This document shows positions 13,396 through 32,365 of a DNA stretch of 64,000 nucleotides, piece after piece. Under the pieces are notes generated by a model, which was given only the letters and a program-made list of their open reading frames with translations, had not been told where the DNA came from and made no database searches. Source of the DNA: an uncultured Gammaproteobacteria bacterium (lineage in GTDB: Bacteria; Pseudomonadota; Gammaproteobacteria; CAWCPV01). Positions within the stretch are counted from its first letter, which is position 1. Each line of letters opens with the position of its first letter. The DNA is taken from assembly GCA_963797555.1 (NCBI GenBank), contig CAWCPV010000005.1, positions 192,001 to 256,000 of the forward strand. Direction: 5' to 3'. Position numbers and translations under genes: made by a program.

Positions 13396-14597
13396 TCAAC
13401 CTGGGGGAGTGGCAATGGCACGGAGCCGTCGCTCCGAGCGCCGGCGATGCCGCCTCAGGCGCTTGTATTTCGCCTGTGCCCAACAGGCCAAACGCTCGTC
13501 GAGATAGCGAAGCGTCGGGTAAAGCGCCGATGGGTAGTAACGACCGTAGTACGTCAGCCAACCCCGGATGACGGGATTGAACATCCGAGCCAGGTCGTCA
13601 ATCCGCTTGTCCACCCGGCAACCGAGCTGCCAGTCACGAATCGCTTGACGCATGCGTTTTGCGGCCCGGTTGCTGACCGCCGGGCTGAAGTTGACGAAGT
13701 ACTTTCCCCAGCGATTCTTCGAACGCCGCGACCGGAACGTATAGCCGAGGAAGTCGAATTTCTCGTTGGGGTAGTGGCCCCGTCGGTCGTCATCGTTGCA
13801 GTAGACAATCTGCGTCTTCTGCGGATGCAGCTCCAGCCCGCACTCCGCAAACCGCCCCTGCAGCACACGCTTCAGCCATTGCGCCTGCGCTTCGCTCACA
13901 CAGTGGCAGAGGATATCATCGGCAAATCGCTCGAACGGAATGTGCGGATGGTGTTTCGCCATCCACCGGTCGAACGCATAATGCAAGAAGAGGTTCGCAA
14001 GCAAGGGGAAATCACGGACCCCTGCGGCGTCCCCCGCTCCCGGGGCTCCAGGGTGCCATCAGCCAACTGCACGGGGGCTTTCAGCCACCGCTCGATGTAC
14101 AACAGCACCCAGCGACAGTCGGTGTGCTTCTTCACCGCCTTGAGAAGCAGGTCGTGCGGAATGGTGTCGAAATAGGCCCGGATGTCCAGGTCGAGCACCC
14201 AGTCATAGCGCCAGCAACGCTCACGCGCCACGCCCACGGCGTCCAACGCCGACTTCCCAGGCCGGTACCCATAGGAGTCCGAATGGAAATGCTTCTCCAA
14301 CTCGGGCTCCAGGTACCCCTTCACCACCGCCTGCGCAATGCGGTCCGCGACCGTCGGGATCCCCAACGGCCTCGTCCCACCCTCTCGCTTGGCGATCTCC
14401 ACACGCTTCACCGGTGGCGGAAAGTAGCTGCCTGACGACAATCGATTCCACAGCTTGTAGAGGTTGTTTTCCAAATCCTCCTCAAACACCTCTATCGACT
14501 GCTCGTCGACACCAGCCGCTCCCCGGTTTGCCTTCACCCGTTTGTACGCTTCCCAAACCCAACGCTTGGGAATACAAAACGGCTTTGCTTTATCCAA
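13396..14597 (-). pseudogene. ltrA: Intron A reverse transcriptase/maturase (frameshift near 14005, C-terminus clipped)
   Basis: RPLGIPTVADR, SYGYRPGKS, LDLDIRAYFD, GTPQGSVISP, ERFADD, FDFLGY; one C missing in a C-run. Confidence 0.9.
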
Positions 14598-15150
14598 AAG
14601 GCTCCTCCCGTTTCCGGTTGACCTTCCGATAAGACCGGACAGTGCCGCCCCTTTGCTCCAGCCCCATTACAGGACCTTCAACGCTCCTACGGGCGGCTCC
14701 GCCCCTGTGCCCCGCCTCGGTACTCTGGCTCTCGTGGGGCTGCCACTTGAGCGGCTCCCTTCACATCGGGGCGACAGGTTCCCACGTTCCACACAAGAGC
14801 CTGAACCAAGGTCACGCCGCCTTCGTGCCGGAGGCCATCTGGCCAGTCAACAGGCTCCCGCCAGACTCATCCCAGGTTAACGACTACCCCCTGGTTTCGA
14901 CCTCGTCCCTACGCTTTCGACAGCTCATCGACGGTTCGCTTGCGCTCGTCTCCTTGGCCCACACCTGACAAAGTCTCGCCCTGCCTTTTCCTCGACGCTC
15001 ACCACCCGGACTCTTGACCCGCGCAGCTCGAGGCGGTTTGAAGCCTGCACCTGCATGCCGGCTTCGAGGGGCCTGCCCTCATCTCTCGTGCAGCATGGCT
15101 GCTCCAGTGTGCTCAATTCATAAGCACTCCTTCGCGCCTTCGTGGCGCAC
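13410..15150 (-). mobile_element. Group II intron A (class D-like), 3' end (DV/DVI) lost
   Basis: 5' end GTGCGCCACGAAGGCGCG at 15150; domains I-III similar to intron B at 29167; no domain V after the RT. Confidence 0.9.
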
Positions 15151-15223
15151 TGTCGTCGATGTAGCGCACCAGGTAGGCTTCGCCCCGCAACCGGGACTTG
15201 ACCACCCGCTCGAACCACAGATC
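15151..15223 (-). pseudogene. Host group II intron RT fragment forming the 5' exon of intron A
   Basis: Translates DLWFERVVKSRLRGEAYLVRYIDD plus one base, then GTGCG. Confidence 0.88.
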
Positions 15224-16808
15224 CGGAACGTGTCAACAACTTTGAGACACGGGTGGTTGGAAACTAAGTTGTCCATTGCCGCCATCTCGCATTGGCCGAG
15301 CGTGTTGGCTTGCTCGAGGAGCAGGGTACTGGTCGTGGGCAGATCCTGCTCGGGGACTATCGGGTTGATGGCGACCAGCTTGGGGGGCTGGGCTGCGACT
15401 GGGCGCCCCCGCACGAAGCGCTCGGGATGTGCCTGGTGGGCGGCATCGAGCGCCGCCTGGCGCACCGCCAAGAGCTCCTTGACCCGTCCGTGAAACACAT
15501 CAGCCGGCGTGAACAGGGCGAGCCCCGAATGCTGATGGTGGTGGTTGTACCAGTCGAAGAACTCGGTGCACCAAGCCCGCCCCTGCTCGAGACCTCGGAA
15601 GCGACCGGGAAAGTCCGGCTGGTACTTGAGGGTCTTGAACTGAGACTCGGAGAAGGGATTGTCGTTACTCACCCTGGGGCGGGAGTGAGAGGGCTCCACC
15701 TTCAGCTCCGCCAGGAGGTCGAGAAAGCCCCGTGCGGTCATGGGGGCACCGCGGTCCTGGTGGACCCGCAGGCTGCGTGGCTCGATGCCATGGCGATGGA
15801 TGGCTTCTGCCAGCAGTTGTTTGGCGAGTGCACTGTTCTCGCGGGCCGCCAGCCAAGCCACCACGAAGCGGCTGTAGAGGTCGAGCACCACGTAGAGATT
15901 CAGGAACACCCCTCGGCTCAGGGTGGCGAGCTTGGTGATGTCCCAGGTCCAGACTTGGTTGGGGGCGCTTGCCTCCAAGCGCGGCACGGGATGGTGAGTT
16001 TTGGGGCGCACGGCGCGCCGCTCGCCCGACTCTGCGGATTCGGCCAACAGCCGATGCATGGTGCGAACAGAACACAGATACCGCCCCTCGTCCAGAAGCT
16101 TGGCGTAGACCTCAGCCGGGGGCTGGTCGATGAAGCGCTCCTCGTGGAGCACCTCGAGCACTTCCCGGCGCTGCGCCTCGCTCAGGCGCCGTGGGCTACA
16201 CCGTGGACCGCTGGCAGGCCGAGTAACCCGCGGTCGGTGCCGATAGAGTGTCGCCCGCGCAAGCCCCAGGGCCGCACAGGCGGACTTGAGCGGCACCACC
16301 GGGTCACGCGCTTCGAGTGAAGCGCACTCATGGCACGTGCTCGCTCTCGGTGGCCGCCAACAACTCCTGGGCTTTTTTTGGAGCTCAAGGAGCTTCTCGG
16401 CGATGAGGAGCTTGCGCGTGAGGATCGCCTTGTCGCGCTCCAGCGCCTCGATGCGCGCCGGTCCTTGGCATCCTTGAGCGCCTTGCGACCCGGCTTCCTG
16501 GGTGCGAGCCCGGCCTCGCCTTCACGCTCGAGCTGCACACGCCAGGCCGCCAATTGGGAGCTGTACAGCCGCTCTCGACGCAGCAGCGCCGCCAGTGCTC
16601 CACGCTCAGTGCAAGCCTCGGCCTCGGCCAAAAGACGTTGCTTGTCCTCGGCCGAGAAGCGCCGATGCAGCCCCCGATCATGCTCAGGGTTGGCTACCAC
16701 CTCAGTACCACTTCCAACTGAAACAGGCTTGGGCATGACATCCTCCAGTCCGCCCTCGAATCATCCTAACGATCATTGCGTCTGGCGCCACCCCAGAGGA
16801 TGAAAGAA
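15224..16808 (-). mobile_element. IS3-family element (orfA/orfB) abutting the host RT fragment
   Basis: orfA RRFSAEDKQRLL; CAAAAAAAG slippery site near 16375; orfB NQVWTWDITKL, HQDRG, DNPFSESQFKTLKY; upstream end approximate. Confidence 0.88.
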
Positions 16809-27615: not shown

Positions 27616-29166
27616 GCCCCGCGACGACGAGCATCGGCCGCTATATTTGTGCACCTCACGGAACCGGTTATCATGTTGCCAGCAGTGCTGTTTACGCTGA
27701 CTCCCGGCGGCGGCGCCGAGTTGGCTTGGAACGACTGGCCGTTCTTTCCCGCCTCATCTCCAGGAGCGACGTGGAGCTATTCGCTATCGCGCCGGGATAA
27801 GTTCGGTGCGTCTTGCAGGGTGAAAGTCCCCGTCGGGTAAGGGCTAGCCACCCGCCCGTATCGAGTCTTGCGTCTGTGGCGGAGCCGAGGGAGCGGCGAA
27901 CAAGACAGGCGAAGCGTAGACAGAGCATCCTGTAGGCCGTAGGGGTGACGCGCACCCTGAAGTGCTGGTACAGCTTCGAGATAGCTTGTTGCGGATGCCG
28001 AGGGTTTTAACGTGCCCGAAGGCCACACGAAGCAGCCGTGTTGGCGAGGCTGTGGAGGTCCGCCGGAGTCCTCAGGCCGCGGCATGCAGGACGAGATGCG
28101 TCAGAGAACCCGGGAGGCCCCAACGGCTCCTACCGGAGGGAAGCATGGGTGTATGGCATACCGTTATTGAGGCACGCAAGGGGAAACCCCGACACAGGGT
28201 TAGACGGGAGCCTAAGCGCGTATGTGGAAGTCCGGTGCAGGCAGGCGGAGGAGTACTGTCAAAGGGAAAGCCCGCCGCATGCCGTTGGGGAGTCTTATCA
28301 GGCGTAGTACTCTGAGCATGGGAGAGCCATGTACCTGGGGAAGGACCTGACGGAAGTACGTAGCCTGCACAGGCCCCTCGTGCCGGACGGAGTCGGGCCG
28401 GGTCCACACGAGCCAACCTTCTTGCGGGCGATAGCCACCAAGGCGCAAGCCTGTCAGCAACATCGGTTTCAGGACCTCTGCCGGTGCCTGGACGCCGAGT
28501 TCCTGCGGCACTGCTGGGGCGACCTCAACCAGGATGCGGCCAGTGGGGTGGACGGGGTGACGGCGGCCGAGTATGCGCAGGACCTGCATGCCAATATCCA
28601 GGCCCTGGCGGAGCGACTGAAGACCAAACGCTACCGTGCCCAGCGGGTACGGCGTGTCTATATTCCCAAGGAGAACGGAACTGAAAGGCCGTTAGGCATC
28701 CCGGCGCTGGAGGATAAGCTGGTACAGCTCGCCTGTGCCAAGCTGCTCGTCGCCATCTACGAGCAAGACTTCCTCGCATGCAGCTATGGGTACCGACCAG
28801 AACGTGGCGCATTGGATGCGGTGCGAGAGTTGACCTTTGACCTGCAGTACGGGGTCTATGGCTATGTGGTAGAAGCCGACGTCAAAGGTTTCTTCGATAA
28901 TCTCGACCACGACTGGCTGTTGGAGATGCTGCGGTTGCGCATCGACGACCGGGCCTTTTTGGGACTGATTCGTCAATGGCTGAAGGCCGGTATTCTGGAG
29001 ACCGACGGAGTGGTCATGCATCCCGAGACCGGCACGCCGCAGGGCGGCATTGTCTCGCCGGTGCTGGCGAACGTGTACCTGCACCATGTGCTGGACCTGT
29101 GGTTCGAGCGGGTGGTCAAGGCCCATTGTCGTGGTGAGGCACTGCTGTGCCGCTACGCCGATGATG

Positions 29167-30996
29167 GTGCGCCGCGAAGGCGCGAAGGGGTGCTTATGAA
29201 TTAGGCACACTGGAGCAGCCATGCTGCACAGGAGATGAGGGCAGGCCCCTCGGAGCCGCCGTGCAGGCGGAGGCTTCAAACCACCCACTGTTGCTGCGTT
29301 CAAGAGACGTGGTGGTGAGCGAGTGAGGAAACGGCAGGGCAGGACCCTGTCAGGTAAGGACCGAGCAGTCGAACGCAAGTGAACCGCTGATGACGTGTCG
29401 AAAGCTTGAGGCGCGACGTCGAAACCGGGGGGGAATCGTTACTCCGGGATGAGTCTGGGGGGCACCTGTCTACTGTCCAGACGGCGTCCGGCATGGAGGC
29501 GGCGAGAGTTCGGTCCAGGCTCTTGTGCGGAACGCGGGAACCTGTCACCCCGATGCCAAGGGAGAAACGCGAGTGGAAGCCCCACGAGCGTGAGAGTACC
29601 GATGCGGGGTACAGGGACGGAGCAACCCGTAGTAGTGATGAAGGTTCTGTAATGGGGCCGGAGCGAAGGGGTTGCCCTATCCGGCCTGAGACGGGGGAGC
29701 AACCAGTGATGGGAGGACTTCTTTGAATCGGGCCAAGCCATTTCCCATTAGCAAGCGTCAAGTGTGGGAAGCCTATCAACGGGTGAAAGCCAACCAGGGA
29801 GGGGCGGGCGTGGACGAGCAAAGCCTGGCTGAGTTTGCGGAGGAGCTGGAAGATAACCTCTACAAGCTCTGGAACCGGCTGGCGTCCGGGAGCTACATGC
29901 CCCCACCGGTCAAGCGCGTGGAGATCCCCAAGGCGGGCGGTGGAGTCCGGCCGCTGGGGGTGCCCACCGTAGCGGACCGGATCGCCCAGACGGTGGTCAA
30001 GCAGACCTTAGAGCCGGTGCTGGAGAGCCATTTTCATCCTGACTCCTACGGCTACCGGCCGGGCAAGTCGGCGTTGCAGGCGATTGGGCAGGCGCGCAAG
30101 CGCTGCTGGCGCTACGATTGGGTGGTTGACCTCGACATCAAGGGCTTCTTCGATAGCATCGACTGGAAGCTGCTGATGCGCGCGGTGCGCCACCACACTC
30201 AGGAGGCTTGGGTGCTGCTCTACATCGAGCGCTGGCTGTGCGCCCCGGTGCAGATGCTGGATGGGACGCTGCTCGCGAACCTGTTCCTGCACTGTGCCTT
30301 CGACGCGTGGATGCAGCGGCACTACCCGCACATCCCGTTCGAGCGCTACGCCGATGATGGTCTGTGCCACTGTCGAACCAAGGACGAGGCTGAACACCTC
30401 AAGGCCGCGCTCAAGCGGCGCTTTGCCGCGTGTGGGCTAGAGCTGCATCCGCAGAAGACCCGCATCGTCTATTGTCAGGATGACGACCGACGGGAGGCGT
30501 ATTCGGACACCGCCTTCGATTTCCTGGGGTACACGTTTCGTCCCCGGCGCTCGAAGAACCGGTGGGGTAAACCCTTCATCAACTTCACCCCGGCCATCAG
30601 CAACCCGGCCGCGAAGGCGATTCGCCAGCAGGTGAGGCGCTGGAAGTTGCATCTGCGCAGCGACAAGGACTTGGAGGGCTTGGCGCGGATGTTCAATGCG
30701 GTGATTCGCGGCTGGGTCAACTACTACAGCGCCTACTACAAGTCGGGGCTGTATCCGACCCTGAAGCATTTGGAGCGCAAGCTCATGCTGTGGGCGACGC
30801 GCAAGTTCAAGCGCTTGCGTGGCCACCGCCGGCGGGCGGCTCAATGGTTGGCGCGCGTGGCGCGTCGGCACCTCGGGCTGTTCGCCCATTGGCTGCTGCT
30901 CTATGGGCAGGCTGGATAGGAAGAGCCGGATGAGCGGAGACGTTCACGTCCGGTTCCGTGAGCGCCCAGGGGGGCGGTTCCCTTGGGCGACTCGAC
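29167..30996 (+). mobile_element. Group II intron B (class D-like), complete RNA, nested
   Basis: GTGCG start; DV GAGCCGGATGAGCGGAGACGTTCACGTCCGGTTC (30923-30956); DVI ending CGACTCGAC. Confidence 0.93.
29723..30919 (+). CDS. ltrA: Intron B RT/maturase with an in-frame deletion of the PQG block; no endonuclease domain
   Basis: RPLGVPTVADR, DLDIKGFFD, RYADD, FDFLGY, X domain; DGTL is joined directly to LANLFLH. Confidence 0.9.
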   Translation: MNRAKPFPISKRQVWEAYQRVKANQGGAGVDEQSLAEFAEELEDNLYKLWNRLASGSYMPPPVKRVEIPKAGGGVRPLGVPTVADRIAQTVVKQTLEPVLESHFHPDSYGYRPGKSALQAIGQARKRCWRYDWVVDLDIKGFFDSIDWKLLMRAVRHHTQEAWVLLYIERWLCAPVQMLDGTLLANLFLHCAFDAWMQRHYPHIPFERYADDGLCHCRTKDEAEHLKAALKRRFAACGLELHPQKTRIVYCQDDDRREAYSDTAFDFLGYTFRPRRSKNRWGKPFINFTPAISNPAAKAIRQQVRRWKLHLRSDKDLEGLARMFNAVIRGWVNYYSAYYKSGLYPTLKHLERKLMLWATRKFKRLRGHRRRAAQWLARVARRHLGLFAHWLLLYGQAG

Positions 30997-31360
30997 GGGT
31001 GTGCGCCTTCCGCTACCGGGACGATGCCGGGCGGTTCTACCGGGTGCTGCCGAAGCGGCTGGAAAAATTCGGCCTGCAAGTGGCGCCCGAGAAGACCCGG
31101 CTCTTACGCTTCAGCCGATTCCACCCGAGCAGGAAGCGACCCTTCACCTTCTTGGGGTTCGAGTTTCTACTGGATGCCTGACCGACAAGGTGTAGTGCGG
31201 GTGAAACGGCGCTCCGCCCGCAAGAAGTTGCTGGCGGCGTGCCGGCGCATCAAGACATGGATCAGGGACCACCGGCATCCGCCGGGGCGCGAGTTCTTTG
31301 CCGGCCTGAACCGCAGGCTGCGGGGGCACTACCACTACTATGGTGTTCGGGGCAACTCGG

Positions 31361-32365
31361 CTAACCCTCCTGAGCAACCCAATCCCGCGCGCGGGCCAGG
31401 TGTTCTGGAAGAAACGCCGATGAGGTACAAGGTGAGCGGCAGCGCCGAGATGACCGACACGTCATGGGTGCGAGCCCGCGGCGTTAGCCGACGCCTTGGT
31501 GCGAGCTCGTCTCTGAGCATGGTCCGGGAATCGTCGGTGACATGGGTGAGCGGCGCGAGCCGCATCCCGTTTGAGAGATCGAGGCCGTTCCTCAACGATA
31601 GTGGAGCAGGCCATGGCGATGCGCAAGCGAGAAGAGGAGGTTTTTCCCAACGCGGCGGCGGTGGAGGTAGGGGCATCGAGTCACTGGGTGGCAGTGCCTG
31701 CGCATCGCAGCGATGCCCCGGTGCGCGAAGTCGCTACGATGACCGATGACCTCAACGCCCTGGCCGACTGGCTACTCGCCTGCGGGGTCGATGGGGTGGC
31801 GCTGGAGTCCACTGGGGGGTACTGGGTCCCGGTGTACGAGGTGTTGGAGAGCCGCGGCTTGAAGGTGTGGCGGGTTGATGCGCGGCAGGTGAAGTACGTG
31901 CCGGGGCGCAAGAGCGACGTGCAGGACTGCCAGTGGCTGCAAAAGCTCGTGAGCCATGGGCTGCTGCGCGCAGCGTTGCGACCCGCGGCTCACCGAGCAG
32001 GCCAGTTGGGTGCAGCGCATGCAAAAGGCGCTAGTGCAGATGAACATCCAGCTCACCGAGGTCATCAGCGACGTGACGGGCCAGGCGATCATCGGCGACA
32101 TTGTGTCCGGCCAGCGCGATGCGCGGGTGCTGGCGCGGCACCGTCAGCCGGCGCATCCGGGCCAGCGAGCAAGACATCGCGCGAGCGCTGACGGGCAACT
32201 GGCGCGAGGAGCACCTGTTCGTGCTCAAGCAGGCGCTGGGGATGTATGAGGACATCGCGCAGCATCTTCGAGAGTGCGATCTCAAGCTGCAAGCGCTGCT
32301 CGCCGAGCCGTCAGCGTCGATTTGGGTAAAGCGCCGCGAGCCGGTAGCAGGGCGCGAGCGCAGTT
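31361..32365 (+). mobile_element. IS110-family remnant: ~250-nt 5' noncoding end plus degraded recombinase (ATG 31613)
   Basis: PNAAAVEVGASSHWVAV, ALESTGGYW, VPGRKSDVQDCQWL, MQKALVQMNIQL; frameshifted; C-terminal domain missing. Confidence 0.85.

Follow-up and report, generated by a model that had tools for sequence, protein, structure and literature searches.

The group II intron RmInt1 targets the insertion sequence (IS) ISRm2011-2. Two related introns, RmInt2 and Sr.md.I1, are described as inserting into the inverted repeats of ISRm17 and into the open reading frame (ORF) of IS66, respectively, and head-to-tail double insertions are on record (PMC4615759). Group II introns are also known to enter one another. 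In Methanosarcina they home repeatedly into other group II introns, and lineages CL, D and E have reached the archaea (PMC4424553, Zimmerly and Semper 2015); in Thermosynechococcus elongatus, the TeI3/TeI4 twintrons carry ORF-less introns inserted into TeI4 ORFs between the first ATG and the second (Mohr et al. 2010). Other lineages are described at generic sites, such as terminators or attC for group IIC introns and the groEL stop codon for IIB1 introns (PMC4424553, PMC12584367). Here we report two related group II introns, A and B, in a 64,000-nucleotide (nt) stretch of DNA, the window, from an uncultured gammaproteobacterium (CAWCPV01; GenBank assembly GCA_963797555.1, contig CAWCPV010000005.1, positions 192,001 to 256,000, forward strand). 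As an earlier note on this DNA had pointed out, both introns start with GTGCG exactly one base past the codons of the catalytic (R)YxDD motif of a reverse transcriptase (RT), at 15150 on the minus strand and at 29167 on the plus strand. Intron A is preceded by cgc tac atc gac gac a, and intron B (GTGCG 29167-29171) by cgc tac gcc gat gat g.

We compared the insertion sites, folds and hosts of the relatives of A and B. The best explanation, which we consider very likely, is that their lineage ancestrally homes into the RT genes of other group II introns, at the codons for motif 5, (R)-Y-A-D-D. Comparative sequence analysis establishes the specificity for this site, the complementarity and covariation between the exon-binding sites (EBS) of the introns and the intron-binding sites (IBS) of their exons, the independence of insertions, and the in-frame rejoining of the exons.

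Insertion sites of the lineage

Relatives were gathered by similarity to the intron-encoded protein (IEP) of intron B, blind to their flanks, from contigs of one genome per species. The best 80 of 343 relatives (59-78% identical, from many phyla) were analysed, with intron ends mapped by alignment to B and at least 17 nt of flank required for a 5' junction. For 63 of the 82 sources (the 80 loci, here numbered with the prefix L, together with A and B) the 5' junction could be mapped, and these represent 57 distinct flanks. Thirty-eight of the 57 end in [Y/F]xDD codons plus one base, and RT homology could be demonstrated in an exon at 34 of these 38. Two further YxDD junctions (L013 and L068) are too short to judge, and the remaining two lie in cellular genes, a GH94 glycosyl hydrolase (..RYGDD, L035) and a sulfatase (..SFADD, L045). 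At both of the latter the same Pfam family continues past the junction and the guides of the intron are those of the lineage consensus; these look like ectopic insertions into non-mobile genes. The exon base at position -1 of the 38 YxDD sites, counted by eye, is T in 23, A in 8, G in 6 and C in 1.

The 19 junctions off YxDD comprise three in IS66 transposase genes (..LHADE^TPV), three in IS6/IS240 transposase genes (..WYLDE^VF), one head-to-tail tandem copy, five degenerate versions of the motif (QGADD, RFADG, RYAGD, RNADD and AGDD), six unrelated sites and one unrelated 5' flank.

For a second sample, metagenome contigs were searched with a 17-nt pattern of the intron 5' end, and 80 of at least 120 stretches were analysed. 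Of the 26 intron-like matches, 16 are at YxDD, with one more at SHADD and one at RWADD, whereas YxDD was found at none of 41 chance matches in non-intron DNA. The two surveys bear out the proposal of guides directed at the YxDD codons in other introns' RT genes, and speak against the refuting case named in the note, homologues at diverse non-RT sites.

Pairing between guides and RT codons

The consensus fold of 22 diverse members (RNAalifold) shows compensatory changes in 16 of its 27 pairs. It places the EBS1 block, AGUCGUU, within the 13-nt loop of a 5-bp hairpin, and the EBS2 block, GCGUAG, in an internal loop directly 5' of that hairpin, between two helices, which is the IIB arrangement. 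The hexamers first proposed as guides, GTCGTT (14884-14879) and GCGTAG (14914-14909) in A and ATCGTT (29435-29440) in B, are present at these places, and the loops that carry them proved to be the true EBS1 and EBS2, both by their IIB-type positions in the covariation-supported fold and by covariation with the exon.

This covariation was scored over 53 contiguous stretches of exon and intron, aligned with 13 pairs (IBS2 from -14 to -9 and IBS1 from -7 to -1). Paired cells amount to 87.6%, against 76.6% in shuffles, and none of 500 shuffles reaches the observed value; the covariation score is 0.361 against 0.172, and pairing falls to 29-56% when the partner is slid by one to three columns. Changes on both sides occur in 11 of the 13 pairs. 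The EBS1 helix is paired in 94.2% of cells and the EBS2 helix in 79.8%. EBS1 comprises 7 nt, its seventh base, an A in the consensus, facing exon position -1.

Members at other sites carry matching guides, which we regard as decisive comparative evidence for the identity of the EBS. At IS66 sites gatgaaa faces UUUCGUU in EBS1, and at IS6 sites gatgaag faces CUUCGUU; elsewhere gtggtg faces CACCAC, tctgcta faces UAGCAGA, atccgtaa faces UUACGGAU and ccagtat faces AUACUGG. EBS2 has changed likewise, to GUGUAU in the YIDD resident L031, to UGGUAG in the YQDD resident L079, to CGUGG in the IS66 residents and to AAUAC in the IS6 residents.

The register of the pairing is that of the reading frame. 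A guide G faces each two-fold C/U wobble base, at -2 (22 C-G and 15 U-G pairs), at -5 (23 C-G and 24 U-G) and at -11 (17 C-G and 25 U-G), and between IBS2 and IBS1 one base stays unpaired as the linker, the four-fold third base of the Ala codon at -8. A linker at about -8 has also been described in RmInt1-type introns (PMC4615759). The arrangement may have been selected for tolerance of synonymous change. A base change in EBS1 that follows the wobble base at -2, as noticed earlier between A and B, does not hold as a general rule: whether the exon base is C or U, the guide base is usually G, and in three other introns an A faces C.

Alternatively, not the RNA guides but mainly the IEP, or recombination between homologous RT genes, could decide the site, the complementarity being merely what splicing needs afterwards. 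An IEP of the RmInt1 type is described as recognising distal exon positions such as T-15 (PMC4615759), the EBS2-IBS2 pairing is reported as dispensable for in vitro self-splicing in IIE/IIF introns (PMC3753933), and the intron has its own RYADD-coding stretch. However, the GH94, sulfatase, IS66 and IS6 sites share with the RT genes no more than a short IBS-like DNA string, and the retargeted members have changed exactly those EBS bases that lie opposite the changed exon bases. Moreover, recombination between RT genes would not give the observed junction, because the junction is at the 5' end of the intron and not within its RT gene. We consider this explanation very unlikely.

Repeated homing or one inherited twintron

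It may also be asked whether the YxDD+1 junction was inherited rather than targeted, from a twintron that formed once and whose outer and inner introns then diverged and spread together. The homology between A and B indeed extends about 74 nt into the 5' flank, at an identity (53/72) similar to that within the intron (439/547). The sequence beside each intron, which had been taken for two different foreign RTs, is RT sequence in both cases, but that of A is a remnant of only about 70-80 nt, and the hosts of A and B are related over the 72 positions just given. Seven Bryobacterales loci also share one flank; composite copies evidently move or duplicate as units as well.

The relationships of inner introns and hosts are nevertheless discordant. 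The ribozyme of intron A is closest to those of L055 and L056 (82%). The host flank of A, in contrast, matches the host RT of L031 at 65 of 72 positions (90%), although the introns of L031 and A share only 77.5% identity. For intron B the nearest relative is L086 (87%), whose outer intron is of the D1D4-3 type, whereas B resides in one of the D1D4-6 type. Outer introns of four Rfam D1-D4 types are occupied, introns with identical 5' ends occupy different RT genes inside single genomes, and the same junction logic recurs, with EBS bases changed to match, in the GH94, sulfatase, IS66 and IS6 genes.

Uninterrupted host copies were found in the genome of the window itself. L211 is 99.5% identical to the 5' exon of B over 1379 nt and runs straight on into the 3' exon (..EALLCRYADD-W-VCAFR..); L217 and L221 are 100% identical to the remnant at A over 69 nt, up to position -2, and read ..EAYLVRYIDD-F-VLCFQ.. 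across the site. Because inner and host relationships are discordant, and because uninterrupted host copies are present in the same genome, a single inherited twintron is excluded as the origin of this distribution; we see next to no chance that the junction was simply inherited.

In an IEP tree of 55 sequences, which was midpoint-rooted with no outgroup and whose support values were not inspected, YxDD sites are found on every main branch, with the IS66, IS6 and remaining sites branching from among them. From this distribution, RT targeting looks ancestral and the other targets derived.

Several loci have been rearranged. Tandem head-to-tail copies are present at a YADD site in L023 (2453-6194, Bryobacterales) and in L088 (1463-5200, a Sinorhizobium meliloti plasmid), in agreement with the double-insertion product known from RmInt2. 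Three loci of one genome (L055, L056 and L074) are chimeric, L055 combining the L074 5' exon with the L056 3' exon, and L042 joins an RT 5' exon to a DNA-methylase (N6_N4_Mtase) 3' exon. The chimeric loci suggest recombination between dispersed copies of the inner intron.

Host RT genes and the effect of insertion

All 23 RT-type 5' exons scanned against NCBIfam are best matched by TIGR04416, the group II RT/maturase model, with Retron and Drt models scoring 150-250 bits lower, and the GIIM maturase domain is present in each of the six RT 3' exons scanned. The outer ribozyme types at 20 loci, by Rfam, are D1D4-6 at seven (among them the chimeric L055), D1D4-3 at five, D1D4-4 at two and the lineage's own type, D1D4-2, at one, with no type detected at five; B in the window adds one further D1D4-6 outer intron. 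The host range thus crosses group II intron classes. The expectation that YxDD+1 junctions would extend over several RT families is therefore borne out among group II introns, with four Rfam D1-D4 types as hosts, and not beyond them, as none of the 23 RT hosts tested is a non-intron RT.

The lineage's own RT gene is invaded as well (L016, L034 and L048). In the IEP genes of 53 introns (L007-L086, A and B), the base after the DD codons of their own RYADD/RFADD site is G in 46 and A in 7, and never T. This may be a mark of partial self-immunity, an idea that rests on the pairing of the 5' A of EBS1 with T at -1, or it may simply be a feature of the class.

At loci with both flanks, joining the two exons gives a normal continuation of motif 5, such as YADD-FVILC, -YVVAAQ, -CNVYVRS or -WVILC. 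The outer RT of B also remains in frame across the junction, the exon gg gtg tgc gcc ttc.. giving ..RYADD-G-VCAFRYRDD... Since the exons rejoin in frame, splicing is predicted to restore the host RT, and the suggestion that insertion disrupts rival retroelements is not supported.

A related possibility is that the targeting is as we describe and its selected function is interference, the silencing of competing retroelements, perhaps as an anti-retroelement activity of benefit to the host cell. Insertion parts YADD from the rest of motif 5, so that an unspliced transcript gives no active RT, and many of the invaded outer RTs are broken or chimeric, as in the 1-nt insertion and truncation at B or the mismatched exons of L055 and L042; the idea of an intron that represses the mobile element containing it has been raised by Waldern et al. 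(2020). On the other hand, the exons rejoin in frame to ..YADD-F/Y/C/W-V.., the lineage invades its own RT gene, and cellular genes are invaded too. A function in interference thus appears unlikely, and because splicing would restore the host RT, a safe landing site combined with hitch-hiking is favoured.

Intron class and proposed mechanism

A and B are members of a widespread lineage of endonuclease-less group II introns of RmInt1-like character, probably of bacterial class D and with an IIB-type ribozyme. The C-terminal motif described for class D, LX3AX3PXLF[V/A]HW (PMC4615759), was found in exact form in 28 of the 82 sequences scanned, and occurs with the P replaced in 22 more, including B (LARVARRHLGLFAHW). 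The remaining 32 were missed by the patterns, and the P-x-LF-x-HW core is present in 9 of 14 of these that were inspected. Membership in IIE/IIF was rejected, because the domain V loop of B has 4 nt, GAGA (GAGCG-GAGA-CGUUC), whereas IIE/IIF introns have a 5-nt domain V loop instead of the usual 4-nt one (PMC3753933, Nagy et al. 2013).

A tblastn search of plasmids matched 609 records, of which 97 come from Sinorhizobium. Among the S. meliloti plasmids the best match (L088), whose IEP is 63.9% identical, is a member of the lineage and not shown to be RmInt1 itself; it lies at ..LIRYADD+t in two head-to-tail copies, with EBS2 GCGUAU and EBS1 AGUCGUU. A frameshifted lineage IEP (67% identical) is found on the large plasmid of Shigella sonnei (L087, 2438-3810), where it adjoins an IS2 transposase; this element was matched in 124 Shigella and 51 Escherichia plasmid records, and a pattern search of L087 detected no intron 5' end.

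In the mechanism that we propose, the excised intron RNA would read the top strand, EBS2 (5'-GCGUAG) pairing with C-UAY-GC at -14 to -9 and EBS1 (5'-AGUCGUU) with GAY-GAY-U at -7 to -1, and reverse splicing would take place exactly one base past the second Asp codon. The guides would tolerate synonymous change, by G opposite -2, -5 and -11 and by leaving the Ala wobble base at -8 in the unpaired linker. By analogy with class D, the ribonucleoprotein would reverse splice into DNA at replication forks and use the nascent lagging strand as primer; a lagging-strand bias is reported for RmInt2 and Sr.md.I1 (PMC4615759). The target would be the least mutable stretch of any RT, on carriers that are multicopy, dispensable and able to move between genomes. 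One guide set would thus open many intron families to the lineage, its own RT gene included. The expected outcome is twintrons and nested or tandem arrays, and the benefit would be a safe and inexhaustible landing site together with hitch-hiking on the outer intron.

Several points weigh against this reading and should be set beside the evidence above. One-third of the distinct junctions (19/57) are off YxDD; the YxDD specificity is therefore the ancestral state of the lineage and not that of every member. The surveys cover part of the relatives (80 of 343) and part of the metagenome stretches (80 of at least 120), and the IEP tree is midpoint-rooted. At -1, 15 of 52 sequences lack a pair, both window copies included, and F-ADD sites mismatch EBS2 at -12, where 17 of 51 sequences are unpaired. 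A scan of all alignment columns for mutual information (MI) with exon positions +1 to +3 gave no convincing EBS3/IBS3 partner, the best candidate column pairing in 70% of 46 sequences (MI 0.34). The EBS2-equivalent of B has degenerated from the consensus GCGUAG and pairs with its own exon at 4 of 6 positions. The assignment to class D, made from the domains and C-terminal motif of the IEP and from the ribozyme fold, is provisional. Finally, the genome of the window has 22 TIGR04416 matches (L209-L230), representing many group II RT genes and fragments, and at least five unoccupied RT sites (L211, L213, L216, L222 and L227) match the consensus guides at 7/7 and 6/6 positions. With full-match sites empty and only two copies, both decayed, the lineage is not active now in this genome, where it looks extinct.

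The two copies in the window

The positions of the features are given in Table 1. Introns A and B align from 15150 down to about 13661 of A at about 78% identity, and both are matched by Rfam RF01999 (group-II-D1D4-2; gathering score 36), A at 14963-15080 on the minus strand with 110.6 bits and B at 29237-29355 on the plus strand with 112.7 bits. A 21-nt motif of the 5' end occurs exactly twice in the window, where 0.02 copies are expected and none of 100 shuffles has two or more, and A and B are the only copies of the lineage in this genome.

Table 1. Features of introns A and B and of their surroundings in the window
Feature	Position	Strand	Description
Intron A	13400..15150	minus	class D-type group II intron, 3' end cut off; GTGCG 15150-15146
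EBS1 of A	14879..14885	minus	5'-AGUCGUU-3', within 13-nt hairpin loop
EBS2 of A	14909..14914	minus	5'-GCGUAG-3', the lineage consensus; complement of C-UAC-GC of RYADD
Host RT remnant at A	15151..15232	minus	..LWFERVVKSRLRGEAYLVRYIDD + 1 nt; IBS1 15157-15151, IBS2 15164-15159
IS3-type transposase	15233..16299	minus	rve, rve_3, HTH_32; open frame 15118-16299
Outer (host) intron of B, 5' part	27806..29166	plus	GTGCG 27806; Rfam RF02005 (D1D4-6) 27823-28078
Outer RT exon 1 of B	28329..29166	plus	ends ..EALLCRYADD + g
IBS2 of B	29153..29158	plus	
Position -8 of B	29159	plus	
IBS1 of B	29160..29166	plus	
Intron B	29167..30996	plus	complete inner class D-type intron, 1830 nt
EBS2-equivalent of B	29404..29409	plus	GCUUGA, inside GCTTGAGGCG
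EBS1 of B	29434..29440	plus	5'-AAUCGUU-3'
Outer RT exon 2 of B	30997..31362	plus	..GVCAFRYRDDAGRFY..

Both copies are decayed relics. Intron A is truncated at both ends: the C-terminus of its IEP, which is split across two ORFs (13896-14597 and 13396-14004), fades near 13400-13440, and a search for domains V and VI (D5/D6) in this truncated copy found none. Outside A, just the RT remnant of about 80 nt is left of the host, which has been truncated by an IS3-type transposase whose frame enters the remnant from upstream; the region around 15233-16299 is a graveyard of mobile elements. EBS1 of A pairs with the exon GACGAC (-7 to -2), with the A at -1 mismatched, and its EBS2, at its own YIDD site (CTACAT), pairs at 5 of 6 positions when G-U wobble is counted.

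Intron B lies within a recognisable outer intron, having RF02005 upstream and RT exons on either side. Its IEP ORF (29723-30919, 398 aa) matches RVT_1 (2.3e-33) and GIIM (7.9e-16) in Pfam and no endonuclease domain. D5/D6 (RF00029) are at 30921-30996 with 54.6 bits, the 3' end reading ..GACUCGAC, with a bulged A, read from the sequence, 7 nt from the end. EBS1 of B pairs with GAUGAU (-7 to -2), two G-U pairs among them, and the exon G at -1 is mismatched. B is a relic in that its outer intron is frameshifted and truncated and its EBS2 degenerate. Relative to the uninterrupted paralogue L211, outer RT exon 2 has a 1-nt insertion near 31164, and the homology to L211 stops near 31362; no outer D5/D6 were found even at E values up to 5, and the outer intron is thus truncated. 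Downstream, the ORF at 31590-32360 is named IS110-family-like transposase from its translation alone.

At both window copies exon position -1 differs from the empty paralogue, being T in the empty sites, A at A and G at B, with 69 of 69 upstream bases identical at A and 99.5% identity over 1379 nt at B. The difference may stem from an imprecise 5' junction, from gene conversion ending at the insert or from chance. Paralogue searches in two other genomes for the same comparison returned the query itself only. Of 151 genomes from the phylum, 13 contain uninterrupted relatives, in which YADD is followed by F, I, S, A, M, W or Y; as this place varies naturally, a base other than T at -1 is not in itself abnormal. 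The RT-like genes of the window's genome include YVDD, YMDD and YIDD active sites, several of which would pair well with the consensus guides.

Comparison with known systems

The closest described introns are RmInt1, RmInt2 and Sr.md.I1 of Sinorhizobium (class D, IIB-type, endonuclease-minus). The present lineage shares with them an IEP of RT and maturase with no D/En domains, the C-terminal motif in at least part of its members, guidance by EBS (EBS1, EBS2 and EBS3 in the described introns), the linker at about -8, head-to-tail doubles and the residence of some members in IS66 genes. It differs in that the RmInt1-type members described home into IS elements, whereas most of the present members home into RT motif-5 codons; on the evidence of the IEP tree, the IS-targeting forms look derived. 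A broader reading, which we offer tentatively and hold to be possible rather than probable, is that most of bacterial class D is an obligate hyperparasite of group II introns, with guides selected against synonymous escape and any R-Y-A-D-D RT serving as a landing pad. Two to three guide-base changes would then have led repeatedly to the catalytic D-E codons of DDE transposases (IS66 and IS6), and the IS-targeting RmInt1 would be a derived escapee.

The nested introns of Methanosarcina acetivorans are alike in that group II introns home into other group II introns, and if it is true that class D introns of this species sit at YADD+1, they would be a precedent for the site in one archaeon. The passages of the literature searched yielded no description of YADD-directed homing. 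For the TeI3/TeI4 twintrons, identical inner copies in diverged outer introns were likewise taken as independent insertions (Mohr et al. 2010); their site, as described, is the start of the domain IV ORF in one family and one genome, whereas here it is the catalytic codons of hosts with at least four ribozyme types in many phyla. The group IIC and groEL-associated IIB1 introns are similarly lineages specialised for one recurring generic site, which in the accounts cited is a DNA structure or a single cellular gene and not the catalytic motif of a class of retroelements.

According to Waldern et al. (2020), the commonest neighbours of group II introns are other group II introns. The targeting described here would explain this association, would predict the origin of nested intron arrays and of intron-mediated rearrangements, and would give the RmInt1 family an evolutionary context. 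A mobile ribozyme would be using the unchangeable polymerase active site of its competitors as a universal address, as a parasite of parasites, and its natural synonymous-tolerant guides suggest a design principle for targetrons against conserved protein motifs.

Inteins and group I introns are known for residing in their host genes at the best-conserved codons of the active site. There, too, the target cannot mutate without loss of function, and precise removal restores the product. They differ from the present lineage in that they depend on a homing endonuclease and have cellular hosts, whereas here the address is an RNA guide and the hosts are selfish elements. What is known, then, is the site-specific retrohoming of a class D intron into a mobile element; what appears to be new is the use of RT catalytic codons as the site, the range across intron classes and the wobble-tolerant guide.

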